A stretch of 64,000 nucleotides of DNA from Clostridia bacterium (GCA_017622085.1 JAGARU010000030.1:53658-117657), one strand, 5' to 3'. Positions 4,042 through 63,467 are shown, counted from the first letter of the stretch. Notes: a model not told the origin generated them from the sequence alone. A program made the numbers and translations.

Positions 4042-4566
4042 ATGATCCTTGACGTATCCGCGTTGCTTTCCGGTAAGGTGGACGTTCTTGAATTTGACTA
4101 TATCATTCCTTTGCTCGACGAGGAGGGCGAGGCGACTATACTGCCTCCGCCGGACGTTGATTTTACAAGTGGGATCCACATCTGTGGCAGGATCACGGAC
4201 AATGCCGGTTATATGGCCTTAAAGGCCTCTTGCGAGATCGGCTACCGCACTGCCTGCGCCAGATGCCTGACAGACCTTGAGGGTACCTTCTGCTACGAGT
4301 TTGAAAAGATCGCGGCAAAGGCAGGAACCATCGAGGGCGACGAGGACAATTACGTGATGATCACCGAGGGCCGCCTGGATCTTGACCGGGATGTGGCCGA
4401 GGAGGTCTCTCTGGAGTTCCCCACACGCTTCCTCTGCTCGGAGGAATGCCTTGGACTTTGTCCGAAATGTGGAAAGAACCGCAATTTGGAGCCCTGCGAT
4501 TGTGCAAATCAAAAAGAAATTGACCCAAGGCTTGCAATTTTGCAAAAACTACTTGAAAATCAATAA
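4042..4566 (+). CDS. yceD: DUF177/YceD family ribosome maturation protein
   Basis: CARCL and CSEECLGLCPKCG...IDPRLA motifs; directly upstream of rpmF. Confidence 0.92.
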   Translation: MILDVSALLSGKVDVLEFDYIIPLLDEEGEATILPPPDVDFTSGIHICGRITDNAGYMALKASCEIGYRTACARCLTDLEGTFCYEFEKIAAKAGTIEGDEDNYVMITEGRLDLDRDVAEEVSLEFPTRFLCSEECLGLCPKCGKNRNLEPCDCANQKEIDPRLAILQKLLENQ

Positions 4567-5468: not shown

Positions 5469-7410
5469 ATTCGCTGTCTTCTTTGTTGAAATTCTCTTCC
5501 TCTTCGTAAAGCTGCATCAAAAGATCCTCGGTCTGAATGCGCTCATCCTCCAAGGCGGCGGCGCGCACGTAATCGGTGGCCGCCTCGCCAAACAGCTCGG
5601 TTTCGATTTCAATCAGCCGTGCCTCAAGGCGGGGAATCTCCTTCGCCACAAATTGACGGCGCTTTTGGTCCTTTCGCTTTTTGGCGGCCTCCTGCTTGGC
5701 TTGCAGATATTCATCCTTGCCGTTGGAGGCGACGCTTTGCGCCTTGCCGTCTCCCTTGGCAAGCTCGGCGCGACGCTCCTGCTCCCGGCAAAATTCCTCA
5801 TAGGAGCCGGTAAAGTCCTCGTAGGTGTCGGGGGAGGACAGATGCAAAAAGCGGGTGGCCAGACGGGAAACGAAGTATCGGTCGTGAGACACGGCGATGA
5901 TCGTTCCGTCAAAGGCGGACAGTGCGTTTTCCAGCGCCTCGCGGGAGGCGATGTCCAAGTGGTTGGTGGGCTCGTCCAGAATCAGCACGTTCATCTTTGA
6001 CAGAATCAGCTTAGCCAGCGTCAAACGAGCGCGCTCGCCGCCGCTGAGCAGGGAAACGGTCTTTTCGATGTCGTCACCCGTAAAGCGGAACAGTGCCAGC
6101 GTGTTGCGGATCTCCGTTTGGGTCAAGGAGGGATACGCATCCCAAAGCTCGTCTAAAATGGTCTTCTCCGGATCGAGATTCTGGTTTTCCTGATCGTAGT
6201 AGCCAATGGTCACGTTGTAGCCGAATTCCAGCTTTCCGCCGGTGGGGGATAGCTGACCCATCAGAAGCTTGATGAAGGTGGATTTTCCGCAACCGTTGGG
6301 GCCCAGCACAAACAGACGCTCCTTCTTTTTGAGAAGGAAGGAAAGCTCCCGGAACAGCCGATGCTCGCCAAAGGCCATGGAAAGCCCCTTGACCGTAAGC
6401 ACGTCGTTGCCGCTCTCGTGGGATTCCGTAAAGGTGAATCGGATGGACTTGGGCGCATCCTTGGGCTTTTCAATTTTGGTCATCCGCGCCAGGGCCTTCT
6501 CCCGGGATTCTGCGGCTATGATGTTCCGCTCTCGGTTCCATGCTCTCTGCTGGGCAATGTAGGCCTCCAGCCGGGCAATTTCCTTTTGCTGATTTTTGTA
6601 TTGGTGCTCCAGCACCTCGCGGTCCTTTTCCTTTTTCTCCACGTACGCCGTGTAGTTGCCGTTGTAGAGCTTGGCGTGACGGTGCTCGATCTCCAACGTC
6701 TTGTTGGTTACCCGATCGAGGAAGTATCGGTCGTGGCTGATGAGCATAACCGTCTTTTTGTAAGTGGCCAGATGCTTTTCCAACCATTCCATGGTGGCCG
6801 TATCCAGATGGTTGGTGGGCTCGTCCAGCATCAGAATGTCCGGCTCCTGAGAGAGCAGTCGCGCCAAAGCCAGACGGGTGCGCTGACCTCCGCTGAGGTC
6901 GGACACCTCCATGCCGTGGTAGGACTTGTCGAAGCCCAGCTTTTCAAGAAAGCTGGCGCAACGGGACTTGTACTCCAGTCCGCCTTCGGAAATGTAAGTT
7001 TGATTTAAGGAAGTAAACTCCGCCGTCAGCCGATCCAGCTCCGCACCGTGGGTGGTTTTCAAAAGCTGTTCCAGCTCCGCCAAGCGATATTCGGCTAAAA
7101 TCAAGTGGGGGAACGCGGCATACATCTGCTCCAGCACGGTGCCGCCGATGGGATGCCCGCCAATTTCCGCCGTGTTGCGAAAGGCGTTGTCCTGTGCCAG
7201 CATGCCCACCGTTTTGCCCCGTCCAATAAATACGGAGCCCTCGTCGGTGGTGTACTCGCCGGTAATCAGCTTGAACAGGGAGCTTTTTCCGCATCCGTTC
7301 ACGCCCACCACGCCCAATCGGTCGTTCTCCTCGATGGAGAAGGAAATATTCTCAAAAATGGTGACGACCCCGTAGCGAAGGGCGAGGTCGTTTACACTAA
7401 TTGCAATCAT
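5467..7410 (-). CDS. ABC-F family ribosome-associated ATPase (YdiF/Uup-like)
   Basis: Two NBDs (GVNGCGKS/LSGGQ/LDEPTNHLD and GPNGCGKS/LSGGE), no TM segments, C-terminal coiled coil. Confidence 0.92.
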   Translation of the reverse strand: MIAISVNDLALRYGVVTIFENISFSIEENDRLGVVGVNGCGKSSLFKLITGEYTTDEGSVFIGRGKTVGMLAQDNAFRNTAEIGGHPIGGTVLEQMYAAFPHLILAEYRLAELEQLLKTTHGAELDRLTAEFTSLNQTYISEGGLEYKSRCASFLEKLGFDKSYHGMEVSDLSGGQRTRLALARLLSQEPDILMLDEPTNHLDTATMEWLEKHLATYKKTVMLISHDRYFLDRVTNKTLEIEHRHAKLYNGNYTAYVEKKEKDREVLEHQYKNQQKEIARLEAYIAQQRAWNRERNIIAAESREKALARMTKIEKPKDAPKSIRFTFTESHESGNDVLTVKGLSMAFGEHRLFRELSFLLKKKERLFVLGPNGCGKSTFIKLLMGQLSPTGGKLEFGYNVTIGYYDQENQNLDPEKTILDELWDAYPSLTQTEIRNTLALFRFTGDDIEKTVSLLSGGERARLTLAKLILSKMNVLILDEPTNHLDIASREALENALSAFDGTIIAVSHDRYFVSRLATRFLHLSSPDTYEDFTGSYEEFCREQERRAELAKGDGKAQSVASNGKDEYLQAKQEAAKKRKDQKRRQFVAKEIPRLEARLIEIETELFGEAATDYVRAAALEDERIQTEDLLMQLYEEEENFNKEDSE

Positions 7411-7428
7411 CGTCGTATCTTTCTATGA

Positions 7429-8214
7429 TTATTTTTTGGGGAACAGAACCTGCTTGGTTCGTCCGAGGCCGTAAATGCCGAGGGCAACCATCCAAAGTCC
7501 GTCCGTTACGAAAATGGCTTCCCGGTTCAGATTGAACAGGTAGGCGATTACCGTGGCGCCGCCGACGGACAGGCAAAGCGCGCCGCTGACGGCGCCGAAG
7601 AGGATCAAAAGCAAGGGCTTTGCTTCCTTGTAAGAATGCTTTACCTCGCAGAACAGCAAGTACGCCAGCGTGACGGTGGCGATGGAAGGGAAGTAGCGGA
7701 AGGGGCTGACCAGGGTGACGCTGTCGTTGAAGTAAGCGCAAAAGGCCTCAACGGTAGCCCAAAGCGTAGCACCGCCTCCAAGAATGGAAAGCAGGGGGGA
7801 TTTTTCTCCCCGACAGAGGAACAGCATAACAAAGAAGCCGGCAGCGATCAGGGTGAGCAGAAGTCTCACGTATAAAACCTTGTCCATGGCCGTCCGGTTG
7901 GCAAGAAACGTCATCACCGCATCCAGCACCAGCGCGAAGGCGGCAAACAGGGAGGCAAAATCCAAAAGAGGAGAAATTTTGTAATCCGGTGCATAATTGT
8001 CCCGCCGCAGGGCAAGAATGGGGTACAGCAAAGCCCCCAGGGCGGCCGCCCATCCGATCACCAGGGTAAGGATCCAAAGGGGAGAGCGGGTATCAAAATG
8101 ACCAATGGAAAAGTCGAAGGCATATCCTAAGGAAAGTCCGCCGAGAATGGCGGCAATACAGGCGGCGGCACTTACGCCGGCCAGCCAGAGCTTATTTGCG
8201 GTTCTTTTTTGCAT
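7429..8214 (-). CDS. Hypothetical polytopic membrane protein
   Basis: About 8 hydrophobic segments; AAGGAG RBS; likely co-transcribed with the ABC-F gene. Confidence 0.75.
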   Translation of the reverse strand: MQKRTANKLWLAGVSAAACIAAILGGLSLGYAFDFSIGHFDTRSPLWILTLVIGWAAALGALLYPILALRRDNYAPDYKISPLLDFASLFAAFALVLDAVMTFLANRTAMDKVLYVRLLLTLIAAGFFVMLFLCRGEKSPLLSILGGGATLWATVEAFCAYFNDSVTLVSPFRYFPSIATVTLAYLLFCEVKHSYKEAKPLLLILFGAVSGALCLSVGGATVIAYLFNLNREAIFVTDGLWMVALGIYGLGRTKQVLFPKK

Positions 8215-55234: not shown

Positions 55235-55275
55235 AAAAAAGAGAAGGATTCCGAGTAAATCGGAATCCTTTTTTT
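55235..55275. terminator. Bidirectional terminator
   Basis: AAGGATTCCGA-GTAAA-TCGGAATCCTTTTTTT. Confidence 0.85.
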
Positions 55276-55984
55276 AATCCAGTTCAATAAGCTCTTTTAG
55301 AAGCGCTTGTGTGGAGAGGCGTGCTTTTTGACGTTTTTGAATATGGCGTGTTTGCTTTGGGGTGTAGCGATACTGATAGCAATTATGGCATACAAATAAT
55401 TCTGTTTTTAGAAGGGAACCAAAGCTTTGCTCAGGATAAAGCATATGTATCGTTTCCATATCCACCCGGAGGGTATCCTCATCAAATTTGAGGATAACAG
55501 GCTTTTTAACAAGCTCAGCTCCACAAAAGGGGCAGGATGTTCTTTTCCACCGCAAAAGGAATCGATCCCATTTATGCAGTGCCGTAGGAGTGGAAAGGGA
55601 GAGATCTTCAGCCAGATTGATCCATACGTCAACACAGATGCCCTTGCTTTCCCAATGCTTCACCATACTGTCAATGCAGGAAAGAAGGATTGTTTGAAAG
55701 TTGGGGTCTCCGTTAAACACGTGCGGAAACCGATCGATCAGTATTGTCAATCCGGTAAAGGACAGCCATTCAAGATCGCAAAGGCATTCATCCACTGCAT
55801 CCCAATTGTATCCAAAATAATCCGGAAACCGAAATAGCGTTTTTAAATGATGAAGGGTAGCAATTTCATTTTTGCAGAGGGCACCATTTAAGCAAAAGAG
55901 GGAAGAGGTGGAGTCGATTTCCGAGGATAAGCTTTCCGCCATCATTCCGGGCTTGATTGAAATAAAACGAATCCTTTTATGCAT
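55274..55984 (-). CDS. Barstar-family domain protein with C-terminal Cys-rich (CxxC...CxxC) extension
   Basis: FRFPDYFGYNWDAVDECLCDLEWL barstar signature; CPFC...CHNC; AAGGGG RBS. Confidence 0.7.
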   Translation of the reverse strand: MHKRIRFISIKPGMMAESLSSEIDSTSSLFCLNGALCKNEIATLHHLKTLFRFPDYFGYNWDAVDECLCDLEWLSFTGLTILIDRFPHVFNGDPNFQTILLSCIDSMVKHWESKGICVDVWINLAEDLSLSTPTALHKWDRFLLRWKRTSCPFCGAELVKKPVILKFDEDTLRVDMETIHMLYPEQSFGSLLKTELFVCHNCYQYRYTPKQTRHIQKRQKARLSTQALLKELIELD

Positions 55985-56126: not shown

Positions 56127-56202
56127 TGGGATATCGTCAAGCGGTAAGACACAGCACTTTGACTGCTGCATTTCGCTGGTTCGAATCCAGCTATCCCAGC
56201 CA
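56127..56202 (+). tRNA. tRNA-Gln(TTG)
   Basis: TGGGATATCGTCAAGCGGTAAGACACAGCACTTTGACTGCTGCATTTCGCTGGTTCGAATCCAGCTATCCCAGCCA; promoter TTGACA 56081...TATAAT 56105; downstream hairpin at 56207-56242. Confidence 0.96.
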
Positions 56203-56532
56203 AGTTGAACCTAATTTGAACCACTCGGTTTGAATTAGGTTTTTCTCTTTTTATTGACTAAATGCTTTTGTGGTATAACGGATTTTAAACAGGGTTTTTG
56301 CCCTGTTTTTTCTTTGCTTAAGTGTTTGCTTGAATGTGATAAAAGTCCTTTGAAAGTTGCTTTTATGCCGTGAAAGACGGTTGACAAGAGTGGGGAGTGT
56401 GGTAGGCTATTTCAGCCGAAAGGCAAACGAAACCCCTCGGGGTTGATGTCTTGGCTCTTTTACGCCTTACATCCACACTCCCGAGAGGCTCTTGTCAATT
56501 GTACCATGGAATAAATGCAACTTTTATTCCTT

Positions 56533-58026
56533 TCAAATATACATTTCTATTTTGTATCCGAAATCATTTGTATTAGAAAAGCAAAAGCCCTGACTCTTGT
56601 CAGGACTTATACTACTATTTGGGGTGTTGAAATAAATCTTTAATGTATCATCATACATTTCAATCTCTTTTATTAGTATTGATACAAATGCTTTAGCTTC
56701 TAATTTAAGAGTTTCCTTAAAGTATTCTCTAATATCGCTTTCTGTAAGTGCTATTTCTACTTTTGCATTTTCAATAAGAAGCTCTTTTTCTATATCCTCT
56801 AATTTGCTTTCAAGCTCGTGCAATCTTTTGTTAGTGGTATTTGAAATTATACCGTTTTCAATTGCTTTCATAATATTTTCAAGGGATTTTTCAATTTGCT
56901 TCTTTTCACTTAAAAGCATTGATAATACAGCATTTTCTCTTGAATTACTTTCTTGTGCTTTCAATATGCCATCAACAATTATATTCATAATTTCAGGCTT
57001 GTTCAACTCTGTTTCCAATATTGTAAGTATGAGTGTTTCAAACTCGTTTTTCTTTACAATTGATTTTGTACAGCCATTAGCTCTTTTTCTGCCAAAGCAT
57101 TTATAGTAATGACAGGTTTTGCCAGACCTTGCTGTGCCTGTTTCGGCTGTAACTGTACTACCACAGTAGCCACATTTTAATTTATGACGGAGTAAATAGT
57201 CAATCTTTTCACTTTTTGTTCCGTATTTGTTTGCTACGATTTTCTTATGCACTCTATCAAATATATTTTGTGGTACAATTCTTGGGTACATATCGGTAAA
57301 TACTTCATTTTTAAATCTGTATATACCTGAGTATTTTTCGTTTTTAAGCATATTGTAAACGGTGTTTCTTAGAAATTCCTTGCCTTTGTAATATACACCT
57401 CTTTCTGTTAAAACCTTGATTATATCTTTTACAGCAACATCGTATGAATATTGCTCATAAATGTATCGTACAATTTCGGCTTCTTCTTCATTTATGACTA
57501 CCTTTTTATTTACAATTTTGTAGCCATAAAGCAAGTTGCCACCTGTAAAATTGCCTTTTAATCTTGTTTCATTCATGCCTCTTTTTACTTTTTGTGAAAG
57601 CTCAGCAGAATAATACTCGGCATATCCTTCAAACATTGATTCCATAATGATAGCTTCAGGTGTATCAGGTAAATATTCTGTTGCAGACCTTAGCTTAACA
57701 CCATTATCTTTCAATGTTTTCTTATGAATGGCTGTTTCATATTTGTTTCTTGAAAATCTGTCAAATTTGTAAACTAATACATAGTCCCAATTTCCGTTTG
57801 AACTGTCCTTTAGCATTTGCTGAAATGCAGGGCGATTGTCATTTGTTCCTGTCATTGCTCTGTCAATATACGTATTAACTATTACTATGTTGTTGCTTTT
57901 AGCATAGTCAGTACATACTCTGAGCTGACCTTCAATTGATTGCTCAGTTTGGTTTTCACTTGAATAACGAGCATAAATTACAGCTGTTTTCAACTGATTT
58001 GATTGTGATTGATAGCTTTGTTTCAT
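56533..58026 (-). CDS. Large serine recombinase (resolvase, recombinase, Zn-ribbon and coiled-coil domains)
   Basis: VIYARYSS, SIEGQ, RPAFQQML, DRFSR, AEYYS..LS; CGYCG...YYKC. Confidence 0.95.
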   Translation of the reverse strand: MKQSYQSQSNQLKTAVIYARYSSENQTEQSIEGQLRVCTDYAKSNNIVIVNTYIDRAMTGTNDNRPAFQQMLKDSSNGNWDYVLVYKFDRFSRNKYETAIHKKTLKDNGVKLRSATEYLPDTPEAIIMESMFEGYAEYYSAELSQKVKRGMNETRLKGNFTGGNLLYGYKIVNKKVVINEEEAEIVRYIYEQYSYDVAVKDIIKVLTERGVYYKGKEFLRNTVYNMLKNEKYSGIYRFKNEVFTDMYPRIVPQNIFDRVHKKIVANKYGTKSEKIDYLLRHKLKCGYCGSTVTAETGTARSGKTCHYYKCFGRKRANGCTKSIVKKNEFETLILTILETELNKPEIMNIIVDGILKAQESNSRENAVLSMLLSEKKQIEKSLENIMKAIENGIISNTTNKRLHELESKLEDIEKELLIENAKVEIALTESDIREYFKETLKLEAKAFVSILIKEIEMYDDTLKIYFNTPNSSISPDKSQGFCFSNTNDFGYKIEMYI

Positions 58027-58251
58027 TTTGATTTCTCCTTTAATTAAATTTTTTAATTTGTCTTTCGACAGGAAAAACCAAAAACGGAATTGACAGAGAT
58101 GTCAACGGGTCCCAAAAAATATTTTGCTCAAATGCCTATTATTTGATAGTCAAATCAAAATATTTTTCCCTTGACAGAAATGGCAATTTCGTTTACACCC
58201 ACCGGGCGAAAGACAAATTAACACATAGTTTGTTAAGCATAAGCTTTAACC

Positions 58252-58380
58252 TCATTTCTTTGATTTTTTTATTAGCTCCGTTATTCTTTCTAACAGAGTT
58301 AAATATAGCTGACTTTCATTTTTCAAAAGCTCGGCTATGTTTTCTTGCCCAATAGCATCAACTTTAATTTCATTGTTCAA
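58252..58380 (-). CDS. Putative 42-aa small protein upstream of the recombinase
   Basis: AAAGGAG 7 nt before TTG; MNNEIKVDAIGQENIAELLKNESQLYLTLLERITELIKKSKK. Confidence 0.5.
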   Translation of the reverse strand: MNNEIKVDAIGQENIAELLKNESQLYLTLLERITELIKKSKK

Positions 58381-58466
58381 TTTTGCACTCCTTTCTAAAA
58401 ATTCTACTACTATTTTACAACTAAAAGCTCTTCGATACAATATGACGGAATACTGCTTTAACTGTT

Positions 58467-59375
58467 GATTTTCCCAACTTTTTAGCCATATTCGGCTATT
58501 CACTTGTAAATATACAAGCACACGCCTAACTGTCAATACCCTTACAAAACTCCGACTTTTCCCAACTCTTCATAGTTTACTTGTATCAAGACAAGCACAC
58601 GTCTAATTCTCACACCCTTCTTTTTATTACTGATTTCCCCAACTGTCGCAATATACAGACACCATAACATTGACTTTTTAATAAAAATAGAGTAAATTTA
58701 TATCAGGTGGTGAGAAAATGAAAAGTATTGAGGAAATACGACAAACCTTACGTAATATTCAAGTGTATTACAGGAATAAAGCTTTATTTGATAATTATTC
58801 AAATACCATTTGTAAATACGCATTTTATGACACAATAGCACTTTACGAAAAGCATATTGAAAATGCACCAAAACGATTGCAAGATGTTTACAATGAGCTA
58901 TACAGACAAGGCAAGGCACAAAAGGTAGTTGCTCTTAAATGGAAAGTAACAGAAAAATACATACAAATACTAAACAAACGATTGATAGTATATTTTCAAG
59001 GTGTATTGGTGTGATATTTATATCAAGACAAGCACACGTCTAAAAACGCAACACTTTGTTTTATTACTGATTACCCCAACTAAAAATGGGCTCGCCTGAG
59101 CAAAAAAGAAAACTCCCTTTCGAGAGTTAAAATTTGACAACAATGCTGTTTGGCAATAGCGAGAAAGTGGGTGTTTTCGCAAGCGGCTCAGCGCGAAACC
59201 CCACTTCGCTCGCCAACGCATTTGTCTTTTTATCTCGTGGGAGCTTTTTGGTTGAGTATTTAGTTTTTTCAGTTCGCTTCGTTTTACAGGGCGTGTGCTT
59301 GTCTGCCGAGCGAAGCGAGGCACTTGTATAAGACAAGCACACGCCCTGTTTACACGTTTTTTACTAACATTGACT
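58467..59375. repeat. Dispersed repeat array: 5x ACAAGCACACG, 4x CCCAACT box, 19-bp inverted repeat
   Basis: ACAAGCACACG at 58514, 58591, 59028, 59333 (+) and 59292-59302 (-). CCCAACT boxes end at 58479, 58567, 58644 and 59081. IR arms at 59286-59304 and 59331-59349. Confidence 0.9.
58718..59014 (+). CDS. Small sigma-70 region 4-like HTH protein (ArpU/RinA-like, tentative)
   Basis: 98 aa; C-terminal LQDVYNELYRQGKAQKVVALKWKVTEKYIQILNKRL resembles an HTH; AGGTGG RBS. Confidence 0.55.
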   Translation: MKSIEEIRQTLRNIQVYYRNKALFDNYSNTICKYAFYDTIALYEKHIENAPKRLQDVYNELYRQGKAQKVVALKWKVTEKYIQILNKRLIVYFQGVLV

Positions 59376-59462
59376 CAATGTTTTCAAAATCTTACAAACA
59401 AGTCATTATGTTAAAGATAGTTTCCATAATGCATATGAACACAAAATTCAAAAATGCAAATA

Positions 59463-59519
59463 AAATGTTTCAAAACTTGAACATTTATAATTGAATTTAT
59501 TTTTGATTTATGTTATAAT
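59463..59519 (+). promoter_or_regulatory. Promoter of the XRE-MTase-HNH operon with upstream imperfect palindrome
   Basis: TTGAAT 59491 N17 TG-T-TATAAT 59514; AAATGTTTCAA-AAC-TTGAACATTT at 59463-59486. Confidence 0.6.
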
Positions 59520-59548
59520 ATTTTAAAATATTATTTGGAGTTTTTATA

Positions 59549-59764
59549 ATGGCAGTAAATTACAACAAACTTTGGAAATTGCTCATAGATAAAAATATGA
59601 CCAAAACCGATTTAAGGTTAAAAGCAGATATTGGAACTGCAACACTTGCGAAACTTGGAAAAAATAAGCCTGTGAGTATGGATGTAATGCTAAGAATTTG
59701 TGGTGTATTATCTTGCAATATTGCAGACATTATGGATGTAATTCCAGAGGGAGAGGTACAATGA
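59549..59764 (+). CDS. XRE/Cro-like HTH regulator (possible RM controller)
   Basis: YNKLWKLLIDKNMTKTDLRLKADIGTATLAKLGKNKPVS...IC..L.C.IADIM; ATGA overlap with the MTase. Confidence 0.88.
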   Translation: MAVNYNKLWKLLIDKNMTKTDLRLKADIGTATLAKLGKNKPVSMDVMLRICGVLSCNIADIMDVIPEGEVQ

Positions 59765-62187
59765 AGAATTTAACATATATTTCTCTTTTTAGCAGTGCAG
59801 GAGTAGGTTGCTATGGCTTTAAAAACGCGGGATTCGATTGCGTTGCTACTTGTGAATTAATATCTCAGAGAATGGATGTCCAAAAAGCCAATTCAAAATG
59901 TAAATATGATAGTGGATATATAGTAGGGGATATTACCTCAGACAATATTAAAAGCAAACTGTATAACGAAATTGACTTTTGGAACAAACACGAAGGCATA
60001 GCAGACATAGATGTCATTGTTGCTACTCCTCCTTGTCAAGGAATGAGCACAGCAAACTATAAAAAAGGTGATGAAACCAAAAGAAATTCATTAGTAGTAG
60101 AAGCAATTTCAATTATAAACCGAGTTAAACCTAAAGTGTTTGTATTTGAAAATGTTTCTGCGTTTCTAAAAACTATTTGCACGGATTTAAACGGAAACGC
60201 TGTAACCATCAATGATTGTATTACTAACAATTTATCAAATGATTATTACATATATTCAAATGTAATAAATTTCAAAGACTATGGTGTTCCATCCAGTAGA
60301 CCACGAACGATAGTAATTGGCACAAGAAAAGATTTGATTAATATAAGTCCTTTAAACATTTTCCCAGTAAAAACAAAGGAAATCACTGTAAGGCAAACAA
60401 TTTCCGACCTGCCTTCTTTAAAATTCGGTGAAATCTCTGAATCCGACATTTATCATATGTTTAGAGAGTATCCTCAATATATGGAAGAATGGATTAGTCA
60501 TATCAAAGAGGGCGAAAGTGCTTTTAGCAATGAAGAACAATATCGACCTTACAAAATAGTAAACGGAAAAAGAGAGATATTAAAGGGTGCCTATATGGGC
60601 AATAAATTTAGACGTTTACTATGGGATAAGCCCTGTCCTTGTATTGCCACAAGAAACGACCAATTAGCAAGTCAAAGCACTATTCATCCTGTTGACAATA
60701 GAGTTTTAAGCATTAGAGAATTAATGCGATTGATGACTATTCCAGACGATTTTAAATGGACAACAGAAAATATAGATTCTTTCACAACACTGAGCCAAAA
60801 GAAAGCTTTTTTGAAGAGAAACGAATTAAATATTAGACGTTGCATTGGCGAAGCTGTTCCAACTCATATTATGTTTTCAATAGCTTCAAGAATAAAAACC
60901 ATTTTAGAATTTCAAAACTTTGTTGATTGTTATTATAAGAACAAAGAACTTGCTTTGAAATCTTTTGCACGAAATTTTTATATTGATACATTTATAGCAG
61001 AACAGAACTTGACTAATGCCAAAGGTACAGGTTCGTATTACACACCACAATCTGTAGTTTTTGAAGCACTTTCCTCATATAAATATGAGGAAGGACAAAG
61101 GCTTAGTGTTCTTGAGCCTTCCGTGGGACTGGGTGCGTTTTTACCACAATTATTTGTATTGTTGCAAGATTGTTCAGTAGTTAATTTAGACCTATGCGAT
61201 ATAGACGAAAAAACAATATTCAATTTAAAATCATACTTAGAAACATTAGACTATCCCACTGAAATATTCAAGCTAAATTTCATATGTGATGATTTTCTGC
61301 TTACTACAAAGATAAAGTCAAAATACGATTTAATAATTTCAAATCCACCATTCGTTAATGCAGAAAAAAACGAGTTAAAGATTTACAGAAAAAACTCGAA
61401 AATGAACAAGACAAAAAACACATTTGCCTTTTTTCTAAAAAAGTTTTTTGATTTATCGGATGAAATAATTACTATTTTACCAAAAAGCTTTCTTATGGCT
61501 TCTGAATATGATGATGTAAGAAATGATGCTGAAAAATATAATTTAGTAAAAATAGTCGATTTTGGAGTTAAGTATTTTAAAACCGTTTTTGTTGAAATAA
61601 TTTCTATACATTTCAAAAAGAATTATTTTGGATTGACTCTTGTTGAAAGCAAGTTAACTGATGAAAATTTCACTCATAAGCAAGGGTATATTTTTCACAA
61701 AAAATGTTGGTTGATTTATAGAAATGATTGGTTCGATAAATACATTTCTAAGTTGGAATTAGATATCTTCTCTTTCTTTAGAGATAGACAAATGACTAAT
61801 AAATATTTGTCTAATGAGGGAGATATTAGAGTTTTACGTTCTAAAAACATTTTGGATAATGGAGATATTGTAGAAATCAACGGATACGATAAATATATCA
61901 GCAAATCCGTTCTTGAAAATTTTGCTGTATCAAAATTTATCAACCAAGACTGTATAATAATGCCTAATTTTACATACAACACACGTGCTTCTATTCTTCC
62001 TAAGAATTGCGTTCCTAATGGTTCAATTGCAATATTGATTCCTAACAAAAAATTACGAAAACAGATAGATTTGAACTATTATGCAACCGATGATTTTAGA
62101 AAATATTATGCGATTGTGAAAAACAATGCAAAATTCACTATCAATATTGATAGCAATTCAATATATTACATAGGAGTTTTAAAATGA
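59761..62187 (+). CDS. Fused cytosine-C5 plus amino (probably adenine-N6) DNA methyltransferase
   Basis: N-half: SLFSSAG, PPCQGMS, FENV, RPR, LSIRELMRL, IGEAVP (m5C motifs). C-half: GSYYTP, LEPSVGLGAF, ISNPPF (gamma-class amino-MTase). Confidence 0.93.
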   Translation: MKNLTYISLFSSAGVGCYGFKNAGFDCVATCELISQRMDVQKANSKCKYDSGYIVGDITSDNIKSKLYNEIDFWNKHEGIADIDVIVATPPCQGMSTANYKKGDETKRNSLVVEAISIINRVKPKVFVFENVSAFLKTICTDLNGNAVTINDCITNNLSNDYYIYSNVINFKDYGVPSSRPRTIVIGTRKDLINISPLNIFPVKTKEITVRQTISDLPSLKFGEISESDIYHMFREYPQYMEEWISHIKEGESAFSNEEQYRPYKIVNGKREILKGAYMGNKFRRLLWDKPCPCIATRNDQLASQSTIHPVDNRVLSIRELMRLMTIPDDFKWTTENIDSFTTLSQKKAFLKRNELNIRRCIGEAVPTHIMFSIASRIKTILEFQNFVDCYYKNKELALKSFARNFYIDTFIAEQNLTNAKGTGSYYTPQSVVFEALSSYKYEEGQRLSVLEPSVGLGAFLPQLFVLLQDCSVVNLDLCDIDEKTIFNLKSYLETLDYPTEIFKLNFICDDFLLTTKIKSKYDLIISNPPFVNAEKNELKIYRKNSKMNKTKNTFAFFLKKFFDLSDEIITILPKSFLMASEYDDVRNDAEKYNLVKIVDFGVKYFKTVFVEIISIHFKKNYFGLTLVESKLTDENFTHKQGYIFHKKCWLIYRNDWFDKYISKLELDIFSFFRDRQMTNKYLSNEGDIRVLRSKNILDNGDIVEINGYDKYISKSVLENFAVSKFINQDCIIMPNFTYNTRASILPKNCVPNGSIAILIPNKKLRKQIDLNYYATDDFRKYYAIVKNNAKFTINIDSNSIYYIGVLK

Positions 62188-63467
62188 TTAATCGAATTTT
62201 AAATATCGCTTCGGATGTTTCACTTTCTAAAACCACAGGCAAATTTATGTCCGATAAAGCCTACGGATTTGACACAGTATTTTTTATTTCAAAATTTATT
62301 TTACATAATAGCATAAACAACTCTTTTGATAAATCAAATCTTCGTCAAAAAGCAATAGATTATATCGAAGATATTTTTCAATTAACTAAAGGAACTGCTG
62401 GAGCTGTAAATTATTTTCTTGAAACAATAAATTGGCTTGAATTTTCAAACGTTCTTGTTAAAACAGGAAGAAATACTTATTTGGTTAAGGAACGAGATGT
62501 GTTAGAATATCTTGCCGAAACCTCTGAAAATTCATATATTTTCAATTATTTAGTTGCTTATCAGTGCTTTAAAAATGACGGACTACTTCCTTCGTTTGAC
62601 AAATATTGTTCAGAAAAAGATTTATCAAAGAAAGAAGAAATAGTTAAGGATATATATAAAGTTTTCTGCAAGCTTTCTCCAAGTATTGGTACTCCTGACA
62701 CGCAGTGGTCAAAGCAATTAGTAAAATATCCTTTCTTGGTTTTAGGTTTTATTAATAATCAAAGAAAAGTAACAAGAGAATTACGTGTAAAAGAAGAATT
62801 TTTGACAATTGAAGATGTTGCACTAAATATTGAAGGCACTCGTTCTCCAATTTATTTACCAAAGAAAAACGATTATTTAAAAACATTTAATGTAAATTAT
62901 GTTAGATACTACTTAAAGGGCTACTTGTTCGTTTCTTATAGTAAGATTCAAACCTCTGAAATCATTATTGTTGATAGCTTTGGTACAAACCTTGCAGAAT
63001 TAAAGCTTGCAATGTTGGATGATTCAAAAAATGGTGTTTCTATGTCTGAATTAGATAAAGAACAGTATATTAAAAACGTTGTAAAAACACGAAATCAATC
63101 TATTCAACATCAATTTAGAAAGGGACTCCTTGATAATAACGAACACGTATGTCCTATTTGTGGTTTCTGTTTTGAAGAATTTTTAATTGCAAGTCATATC
63201 AAACCATATTCAAAATGCGATGATACATATGATGCTATCAATCATTACAATGGTCTTTTGCTATGTCCTAATCACGATAAATTGTTTGAAGATGCAAAAC
63301 ATATGACTATTGATGCCAAAACTGGAGAAATTATTTTGTCCCCTTCTGCTCAAAACTCTGTTGATTTTGGTGGTTTGAAGGGAAAATTTGTAGCTCGTCC
63401 ATACATTGATAATGAACGTAGGCACTATCTAAAATGGCATAATGAAAGATTTATTGCATTAAAGTAA
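62184..63467 (+). CDS. HNH endonuclease (putative cognate restriction enzyme)
   Basis: C-terminal CPICG...LIASHIKPYS...NGLLLCPNHDKLF; ATGA overlap with the MTase. Confidence 0.88.
   Translation: MINRILNIASDVSLSKTTGKFMSDKAYGFDTVFFISKFILHNSINNSFDKSNLRQKAIDYIEDIFQLTKGTAGAVNYFLETINWLEFSNVLVKTGRNTYLVKERDVLEYLAETSENSYIFNYLVAYQCFKNDGLLPSFDKYCSEKDLSKKEEIVKDIYKVFCKLSPSIGTPDTQWSKQLVKYPFLVLGFINNQRKVTRELRVKEEFLTIEDVALNIEGTRSPIYLPKKNDYLKTFNVNYVRYYLKGYLFVSYSKIQTSEIIIVDSFGTNLAELKLAMLDDSKNGVSMSELDKEQYIKNVVKTRNQSIQHQFRKGLLDNNEHVCPICGFCFEEFLIASHIKPYSKCDDTYDAINHYNGLLLCPNHDKLFEDAKHMTIDAKTGEIILSPSAQNSVDFGGLKGKFVARPYIDNERRHYLKWHNERFIALK

Follow-up and report, generated by a model that had tools for sequence, protein, structure and literature searches.

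This stretch of Clostridia bacterium DNA raises the question of what role is played by the array of short repeats at 58467-59375, which surrounds a small gene for a helix-turn-helix (HTH) protein. The preliminary description offered three answers, namely tandem origins of transfer (oriT) for mobilization by helper elements, binding sites or iterons for the enclosed HTH protein, or recombination sites that make the gene an excisable cassette. The window (the whole 64-kb stretch analysed) is part of contig C139, and its own genome is a 2.9-Mb assembly of 151 contigs that is 97.8% complete. We found that the array belongs to a structured and widespread cis element of a family with two enzymes, a replication-associated protein (Rep) and a large serine recombinase (LSR). 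The region is interpreted as the cis control region of integrative elements that pair an HUH-type Rep (PF23343, the type of filamentous-phage G2P and plectrovirus ORF2) with an LSR, and the element family carrying the hairpin described below is apparently undescribed. With moderate confidence, we take the array to be a set of cis-acting target sites of Rep, carried by a non-autonomous derivative on which resident Reps possibly act in trans. The array and the open reading frame (ORF) within it comprise the following features.

58473..58479, + strand: CCCAACT box 0, with no hairpin half ahead of the box
58503..58567, + strand: unit 1, consisting of a hairpin right half ACTTGTA-N5-ACAAGCACACG (58503-58524), 36 nt, and a CCCAACT box (58561-58567)
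58579..58644, + strand: unit 2, consisting of a hairpin right half (58579-58601), 36 nt, and a CCCAACT box (58638-58644); upstream copy of the direct repeat
58670..58698, + strand: promoter-like site TTGACT-17-TAAATT, matching the consensus at only 9 of 12 positions, which precedes the 98-aa ORF and overlaps the first TAACATTGACT
58718..59014, + strand: 98-aa ORF; the encoded protein belongs to a large family (members of ~100 aa) with a predicted sigma-70-region-4/KorA-like HTH fold in the C-terminal half
59015..59081, + strand: unit 3, consisting of a degenerate hairpin half (core 59028-59038), 36 nt, and a CCCAACT box (59075-59081); downstream copy of the direct repeat
59143..59221, + strand: GC-rich imperfect stem-loop with loop AAGCGGCTCAGCG, then a T-rich tract; candidate single-strand origin and/or terminator
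59286..59349, + strand: complete hairpin with a perfect 19-bp outer stem, an inner stem GCC/GGC, a GAGCGAAGCGA apex, and a 9-nt 3' bulge ACTTGTATA
59365..59375, + strand: second TAACATTGACT, 16 nt past the hairpin, where the variable cargo side begins

The repeats reported in the preliminary description were confirmed. Five exact copies of the core 11-mer ACAAGCACACG start at 58514, 58591, 59028, and 59333 on the + strand and at 59292 on the - strand, all inside 58514-59343; the last two form a perfect 19-bp inverted repeat (59286-59304 and 59331-59349). Four CCCAACT boxes lie on the + strand within 58473-59081, and TAACATTGACT is present twice, at 58665 and 59365. The palindrome ACTTGTA-N4/5-ACAAG stands ahead of the cores at 58514, 58591, and 59333, and ATTTAT replaces ACTTGT at the 59028 copy. 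The direct repeat around the 98-aa ORF spans about 67 bp (58578-58644 and 59015-59081), with 84% identity over 68 nt. An expected count and 100 shuffles were used as the chance reference for ACAAGCACACG within the window; with up to one mismatch, there were still five matches versus 0.79 expected, a number reached by none of the shuffles. CCCAACT, with six occurrences in the window versus 7.2 expected, was not above chance overall. A regularity absent from the preliminary description is that the gap from the end of the core to CCCAACT is exactly 36 nt in all three units. All five copies of the 11-mer are exact, and the units themselves are 78% (1 vs 2) and 84% (2 vs 3) identical. Units 1-3 lack the left arm and the inner stem-loop of the full hairpin; the small hairpin of unit 1 folds at -4.1 kcal/mol (z -4.3).

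The complete hairpin was predicted to be highly stable as single-stranded DNA (-26.4 kcal/mol, z -8.3), with ACTTGTATA left as a bulge, and none of 200 shuffles was equally stable. A scan of public genomes, with one genome per species and the pattern ACTTGTA-N4-7-ACAAGCACACG, returned at least 119 stretches, whose titles were almost all of gut or rumen Clostridia, and 80 of these loci were fetched at up to 8 kb each. Across 66 aligned, distinct full hairpins, nothing on conservation can be read from the right arm, which was fixed by the search pattern. The inner stem occurs in 26 distinct complementary variants under the conserved GAGCGAAGCGA apex, among them CGGTG/CACCG (10), GGCG/CGCC (6), GTTC/GAAC (5), and GTCG/CGAC (4), and the extension of the outer stem changes on both sides with a covariation score reached by none of 500 shuffles. 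The bulge is invariant across the family as ACTTGTAT and is exposed on one strand. By fold and by covariation over the 66 sequences, the hairpin is thus a conserved inverted repeat able to extrude and to expose a single-stranded sequence. Full hairpins accounted for 70 of 88 motif instances, and truncated hairpins in other genomes have varied left break points.

The stem-loop upstream of the hairpin folds as DNA with z scores of -3.2 (+ strand) and -3.9 (- strand). In 25 of 86 instances, its loop motif AAGCGG-N-T(C/T)AGCG lies on the strand of the hairpin motif, 97-158 nt upstream of it; these 25 are nearly all of the 29 matches to the loop motif in 543 kb, and the remaining loci have different loops. 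None of the hairpin, the stem-loop, and the region behind the recombinase gene matched an Rfam family. In a literature search for the hairpin 11-mers, none of the papers listed was relevant, the matches being unrelated primer or probe contexts.

The enzyme that accompanies the hairpin was identified at other loci of the own genome. The 11-mer has 19 exact matches in the assembly, of which 17 lie in hairpin loci and two (on C1 and C31) appear chance-like. Besides the window, there are six hairpin loci (C26, C35, C37, C79, C80, and C138), and the same repeat stands at the end of C26 and at the starts of C37 and C138. At five of the six, tblastn located a Rep gene 0.15-1.8 kb from the hairpin. 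The encoded proteins (291-329 aa) carry FTxTYD, HFHGxF, and YxxKY motifs of HUH and tyrosine type and match the Pfam family PF23343, 'Replication-associated protein ORF2/G2P' (2e-10, 6e-11). Rep is followed by an LSR on C26, C35, C37, and C80; on C79, the gene of a 709-aa membrane protein precedes Rep, which is directed towards the hairpin. C79 and C80 showed no terminal overlap when examined for circularity. PF23343 has six matches in the genome, the sixth being a divergent Rep (C53:13040-13912) in another gene context, with no hairpin motif nearby. The four clusters of CCCAACT (two or more within 120 nt) in the 2.9 Mb all fall in hairpin loci. CCCAACT boxes directly follow the hairpin in C79 and in L184, a Rep-bearing relative from metagenomes, and units 1-3 of the window are arranged like these two Rep-first origins, with a hairpin, a short conserved flank, and CCCAAC-type boxes. 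The flank of unit 1 (CCTAAC...CCCTTAC) is similar to the 3' flank of the C79 origin, and that of unit 2, TCTCACACC, matches the origin flank of L184.

A Rep homologue was found in 24 and an LSR homologue in 13 of the 80 public loci. Two layouts were distinguished, and they correspond to separate clades in the Rep tree. In the Rep-first layout (11 loci), Rep ends 125-209 nt ahead of the motif and there is no recombinase; in the divergent layout (13 loci), Rep lies 450-1850 nt away (6.3 kb in one locus), usually with the LSR behind it. Bulge variants (TAAG, TCAAG, TATAT) were considered as a Rep specificity code, which was rejected, as TAAG marks one Rep clade and TCAAG is general. Some Rep-first loci adjoin a gene for a PcfJ-like domain protein (3.6e-29). 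Another neighbour in Rep-first loci matched Zot below threshold (E 0.05), and a phage nature of the Rep-first loci is at most putative. Rep homologues were absent from 72,556 plasmid records, and one, unannotated, was present among 50,697 phage records. A metagenome scan for core-N30-42-CCCAACT gave at least 118 stretches from many biomes, of which 80 were fetched, and the ACTTGTA arm was present in one (L184); the other matches are most likely due to chance, because the pattern has 18 bases and the collection is very large.

The preliminary description had held that its proposals would fall if the motif were confined to this locus as decayed duplications. The motif is instead widespread and stands elsewhere next to the gene of a nicking enzyme. 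Its search across Clostridia, which had been expected to show whether single copies lie upstream of relaxase genes, did yield many copies, but the enzyme gene associated with the motif encodes an HUH Rep and not a canonical relaxase. Among the three earlier answers, a trans-supplied enzyme acting on cis sites came closest, although the enzyme is a PF23343 Rep rather than a canonical relaxase and four conjugation-related Pfam families gave no match in the genome.

The array lies in an AT-rich island (27-34% GC versus 52% for the genome) that begins ~70 nt past a tRNA gene and reaches at least 64300. The other features of the island and its border are as follows.

56127..56202, + strand: tRNA-Gln (UUG), detected by ARAGORN and Rfam; chromosomal neighbour at the recombinase end of the island
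56274..56532, - strand: conserved non-coding region of ~260 nt, shared with C35, that follows the recombinase gene and contains a long inverted repeat, TTGACAAGAG...CTCTTGTCAA
56533..58026, - strand: LSR of 497 aa, intact, with all three domains (Pfam)
58027..58220, - strand: recombinase upstream region with two palindromes of the TTGACAGA-N-TGTCAA type
58252..58380, - strand: small ORF, 42 aa from TTG, with no Pfam or PHROG match
59549..63467, + strand: cargo, comprising an HTH_26 regulator, a fused C5 + N6 DNA methyltransferase (809 aa), and an HNH_2 endonuclease (427 aa) (Pfam)

The GC content falls from 0.40-0.51 to about 0.30 immediately past tRNA-Gln, and that of the cargo (0.27-0.32) is as low as on the recombinase side. 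The three Pfam matches of the LSR are Resolvase (1.4e-31), Recombinase (2.4e-15), and Zn_ribbon_recom (6.7e-9). The recombinase segment 56274-58220 is 73% identical to C35 41125-39172, and the homology (81% over 241 nt) stops exactly past the stop codon of the C35 Rep gene, where window position 58220 corresponds to C35 39172. The non-coding region at 56274-56532 is possibly an attachment (att) region. The palindromic sites upstream of the recombinase gene, at 58090-58105 and 58171-58186, are conserved in C35 and have an operator-like look. The 809-aa protein (59758-62187) is a C5 cytosine methyltransferase fused to an Eco57I/N6-type methyltransferase domain. C35:29600-41200 is an 11.6-kb AT-rich island with the backbone order of the window and a Rep in place (cargo, hairpin, HTH gene, short ORF, Rep, recombinase), and it adjoins a tRNA gene by eye. 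On the chromosomal side of tRNA-Gln, 55274-55984 encodes a Barstar-domain protein (9e-18) with a long C-terminal extension. A ~52-nt sequence past the window (C139, ~64736-64787 in window coordinates) recurs with at least 90% identity on some twenty other contigs, often close to their ends.

The preliminary description had seen no Rep in the window, and this was confirmed by a hidden Markov model (HMM) built from 29 Reps and run on all six-frame fragments (best E 2.6) and by tblastn with five Reps, which gave no match on C139. A cognate HUH Rep on the same element is therefore a feature of five sibling loci and the 24 public loci and not of the window. The small ORF at 58252-58380 resembles, by eye only, a ~45-aa ORF that precedes Rep in recombinase-type siblings, and no Rep follows it in the window. 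That it might be the C-terminal remnant of a Rep, another by-eye idea, was rejected on the same HMM result.

On the reading we favour, the island retains the recombinase, a small ORF like the one usually found ahead of Rep, the full hairpin, and the stem-loop, but no Rep gene. Three truncated origin units of the compact Rep-first type seen in C79 and L184 stand in its place, two of them bracketing the small sigma-region-4-like HTH gene. The complete hairpin, exposing ACTTGTAT, is the most likely place of Rep binding and nicking, and the stem-loop whose loop reads AAGCGGCTCAGCG most probably serves as a single-strand origin, as a terminator, or in both roles; given the T-tract behind it, termination may be its only role. 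The CCCAACT boxes, judging from their position, may be iteron-like boxes of the elements of this genome. After excision by the recombinase, resident Reps would act on the window sites in trans, and the truncated units would be Rep binding or termination sites and not inert scars.

Several observations weigh against this scheme. Rep is missing in 31 of the 48 public loci that have at least 3 kb on the Rep side, so the hairpin often occurs without its supposed enzyme. The exact CCCAAC box was not enriched near the hairpin, and none of the 80 public loci carried two or more, for which reason the boxes appear specific to the elements of this genome; an iteron role is suggested by their position alone. 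The arm of unit 3 is degenerate and the number of units is variable, to which decay fits as well as function. Homology between loci has a sharp right-hand limit at ACACG-N6-TGCCA, and the public locus L054 has an inverted copy beyond its recombinase gene, because of which a role for the recombinase at the hairpin is still conceivable. Nicking, binding, and replication are putative for all members of the family.

The sharp limit leads to an alternative in which the hairpin half and TGCCA form a recombination or accessory site of the LSR, as part of att, and not a Rep site. In its favour, the homology of recombinase-type and solo loci always ends at ACACG-N6-TGCCA. L054 moreover has an inverted copy of the hairpin half with TGCCAA 268 nt past the recombinase stop codon (L054:1528-1560 and 4278-4354; 22 of 29 positions versus a background of 16), and because of it the L054 module, with recombinase, 98-aa-like gene, and hairpin, is flanked by inverted copies. 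In the other 14 of 15 elements examined, however, the sequence beyond the recombinase gene contained no second copy above background, and sites at both ends were not observed. The hairpin is present in the 11 Rep-first loci, none of which has a recombinase, and in the window and C35 it lies within the AT-rich island, followed by a further 5-7 kb of low-GC cargo. We consider this alternative very unlikely.

Unit-number variation was assessed in metagenome contigs from four runs of three studies, aligned over 56200-60200. As these data are contigs and their best-supported joints only, rare deletion forms would escape detection. One contig of run X9 joins 58560 to 58638, with the loss of exactly one 77-bp unit at the shared CCCAACT, and a second contig of the same run retains the unit. 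A joint from run X5 (59305>58579) was rejected as a deletion form, as it represents the hairpin of another element mapped in two pieces. As regards the excisable cassette proposed earlier, a natural variant lacking one 77-bp unit exists, and loss of the 437-bp ORF segment was absent among the joints listed. Likewise, the copy-number variants that had been sought were represented by the X9 contig and not, among those joints, by a deletion of 58645-59081.

The partial units, perhaps the whole region, might also be inert scars of duplication and deletion, with the full hairpin as the only functional part and orphaned here. The missing Rep, the degenerate unit 3, the unit number that differs between metagenomes, and the truncated hairpins with varied left break points elsewhere are in keeping with such decay. 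In contrast, the 11-mer remained exact five times while the units diverged to 78% and 84%, the gap from core to box is exactly 36 nt in each of the three units, four of five read-through homologues (see below) have the downstream unit along with the 98-aa gene and the fifth only the core, and the recombinase is intact. On balance, scars seem unlikely, although they are the most probable of the alternatives weighed here.

Binding by the enclosed protein was the second earlier answer. Homologues of the 98-aa protein comprise 18 close clusters and 290 representatives at E ≤ 1e-3. An AlphaFold2 model built with 112 relatives had a mean confidence (pLDDT) of 93.3; an earlier model from 16 sequences reached 52.8 and was unusable. 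Its top Foldseek matches were sigma region 4 and KorA (probability 0.96-0.98, root-mean-square deviation 1.1-2.5 Å over 54-68 residues), none of them at E ≤ 1e-3. Weak matches were obtained to Pfam Sigma70_r4 in 5 of the 112 relatives, with none for the 98-aa protein itself, and to SigF region 4 in a PDB profile search (E 0.017), and Atlas leads agreed with an HTH. Five of 15 aligned homologues read through the position of the stop codon; four of them carry the translation of the whole of unit 3 and the fifth only that of the core. Because these read-through homologues keep the unit 3 sequence, the gene and unit 3 travel together, and the homologues that keep the downstream unit are 70-96% identical in protein sequence. 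Searches for contigs encoding the protein gave 184 pattern matches in metagenome_contigs and 91 in viral_contigs, none of which was confirmed; as no encoding loci were found, the flanks of homologues can be read only from the read-through translations.

That the repeats are operators or iterons of this HTH protein is suggested by the predicted fold and by units 2 and 3, which flank the gene. The protein looks HTH-like, as the earlier proposal had it. The motif, however, occurs at six other places in the genome and at 80 public loci, and a close homologue of the protein was absent from all of these and, apart from the own genome, from 400 genomes of the order. A distant homologue in L054 lies in the same place and orientation, between the LSR and the hairpin, in a Rep-less locus without flanking units. 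Because the motif is common where the protein is absent, the 98-aa protein cannot account for the motif, and we regard operators or iterons of this protein as a highly improbable explanation of the array.

The first earlier answer persists in a modified form, in which the hairpin is an oriT, the Rep-like protein is a non-canonical relaxase, a role proposed in streptococci for integrative mobilizable elements whose relaxases are of the rolling-circle type, and the island in the window is a relaxase-less mobilizable island using helpers. This alternative involves the same enzyme and the same site as Rep target sites do and differs only in the events after the nick, and an inverted repeat beside a conserved site fits an oriT as well as it fits a replication origin. 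In the accessible text of PMC5704250 and PMC5357655, integrative elements that combine an integrase with a relative of phage rolling-circle initiators are described as putatively mobilizable, relaxase-less elements with oriT-like sequences are proposed for Faecalibacterium in that of PMC12084326, and the PcfJ-like domain protein stands near some Rep-first loci. Against it, a search of the own genome with four Pfam families found no PF03432 relaxase in the whole genome, although not all ORFs of the window were scanned for relaxases, and no PF12846 (AAA_10), PF02534 (VirD4-type), or PF05707 (Zot) protein; the only other rolling-circle or relaxase-like match was one Rep_trans gene on C126. Neither a relaxase nor a helper conjugation system was thus found in this cell among the families searched, and conjugative transfer would have to proceed without visible machinery in this genome. 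Such mobilization appears rather unlikely to us.

Returning to Rep target sites, the solo copies of the hairpin extend the picture. About twenty Rep-less public loci share a ~320-390-bp non-coding module that ends at the hairpin, with neither Rep nor recombinase within 3 kb; these modules look like solo or miniature elements. They were observed at L019, L023, L026, L029, L032, L036, L039, L041, L043, L048, L058, L061-L063, L072, L077, L081, L085, L086, and L090, and also at L065, where two modules in direct orientation (1-325 and 7239-7563) lie 7.2 kb apart around an ATP-binding cassette transporter and housekeeping-looking genes. In L050 and L053, which have no Rep, an array of hairpin halves leads up to a full hairpin, and a methyltransferase or other cargo comes next. 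L051 has a flank near-identical to the region of the second TAACATTGACT. At L089:3400-3500 (oriented coordinates), a truncated hairpin has a 23-nt tandem duplication starting at TATCAAG; by eye, a tRNA/tmRNA-like (transfer-messenger RNA-like) 3' end lies on one side of this hairpin and a cardiolipin-synthase-like gene on the other. In unit 3 of the window and in the extra copy of L054, (T)ATCAAG is likewise the point where similarity begins. A further, doubtful extension is that the Rep-less islands and the solo modules are satellites nicked in trans by resident Reps, with the units as start and stop points at which DNA is released or exchanged. This would explain the base-exact junction of backbone and cargo after TGCCA and the small genes bracketed by half-hairpins, and, if true, it would mean that HUH-driven shuffling of cassettes and cargo takes place on top of integration by serine recombinases.

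The hairpin marks a large, apparently undescribed family of small mobile elements that occur in gut and rumen Clostridia and whose cargo includes restriction-modification systems, transporters, and regulators. Most hairpin copies have no Rep gene. Were Rep to act on them in trans, many passive islands in one cell could be moved or amplified by a small number of autonomous elements, and both the delimitation of such islands and the picture of gene flow in gut Firmicutes would change. Concrete substrates for a nicking assay are available in the truncated units, the covarying stems, and the invariant bulge.

Among known systems, the double-strand origins of rolling-circle replicons with HUH initiators (f1 gene II protein, phiX174 gene A, and plasmids of the pT181/pC194 type) are similar in having an HUH Rep beside a conserved hairpin with short repeated boxes, and synthesis of the complementary strand could be primed at the second stem-loop nearby. 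GCGAAGC, the GNA-type apex, forms a DNA mini-hairpin of high stability that is reported at phage origins. Unlike those replicons, the elements described here are integrated into the chromosome by a serine recombinase, the copy in the window is Rep-less with several truncated origins, and the nick site is only predicted. Partial rolling-circle origins can suffice for termination. In f1/M13 miniphages and in tandem-origin deletion derivatives of rolling-circle plasmids, genes are lost, pieces of the origin are kept or duplicated, and Rep is provided in trans; the window differs from miniphages in being an integrated island with its own recombinase and cargo, of which any replication or packaging would be hypothetical. 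Single-strand origins of the ssoA type are long imperfect hairpins in which a TAGCGT-like element of the loop is conserved. A tentative likeness lies in the long GC-rich imperfect hairpin 97-158 nt from the nick hairpin on the same strand and in the TAGCG loop of several loci, whereas the window stem-loop belongs by sequence to no described single-strand origin and is followed by a T-tract.

Integrative mobilizable elements of Firmicutes with putative relaxases of the rolling-circle type (Rel_PHA00330, Rel_PF01719, and MobT) are described in the accessible text of PMC5357655 and PMC5704250. As characterized there, they resemble the present family in being small and integrated, in combining an integrase with a protein related to phage initiators, in carrying cargo, and in being common in gut and oral Firmicutes. 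They differ, in the same text, in having been defined in streptococci, in having mostly tyrosine integrases and often a TcpA coupling protein, and in that no origin hairpin of this sequence is described. On this comparison, which for the second kind extends to the accessible text of the two reports, the closest described kinds are HUH rolling-circle origins and the Firmicutes integrative elements with putative relaxases of the rolling-circle type.

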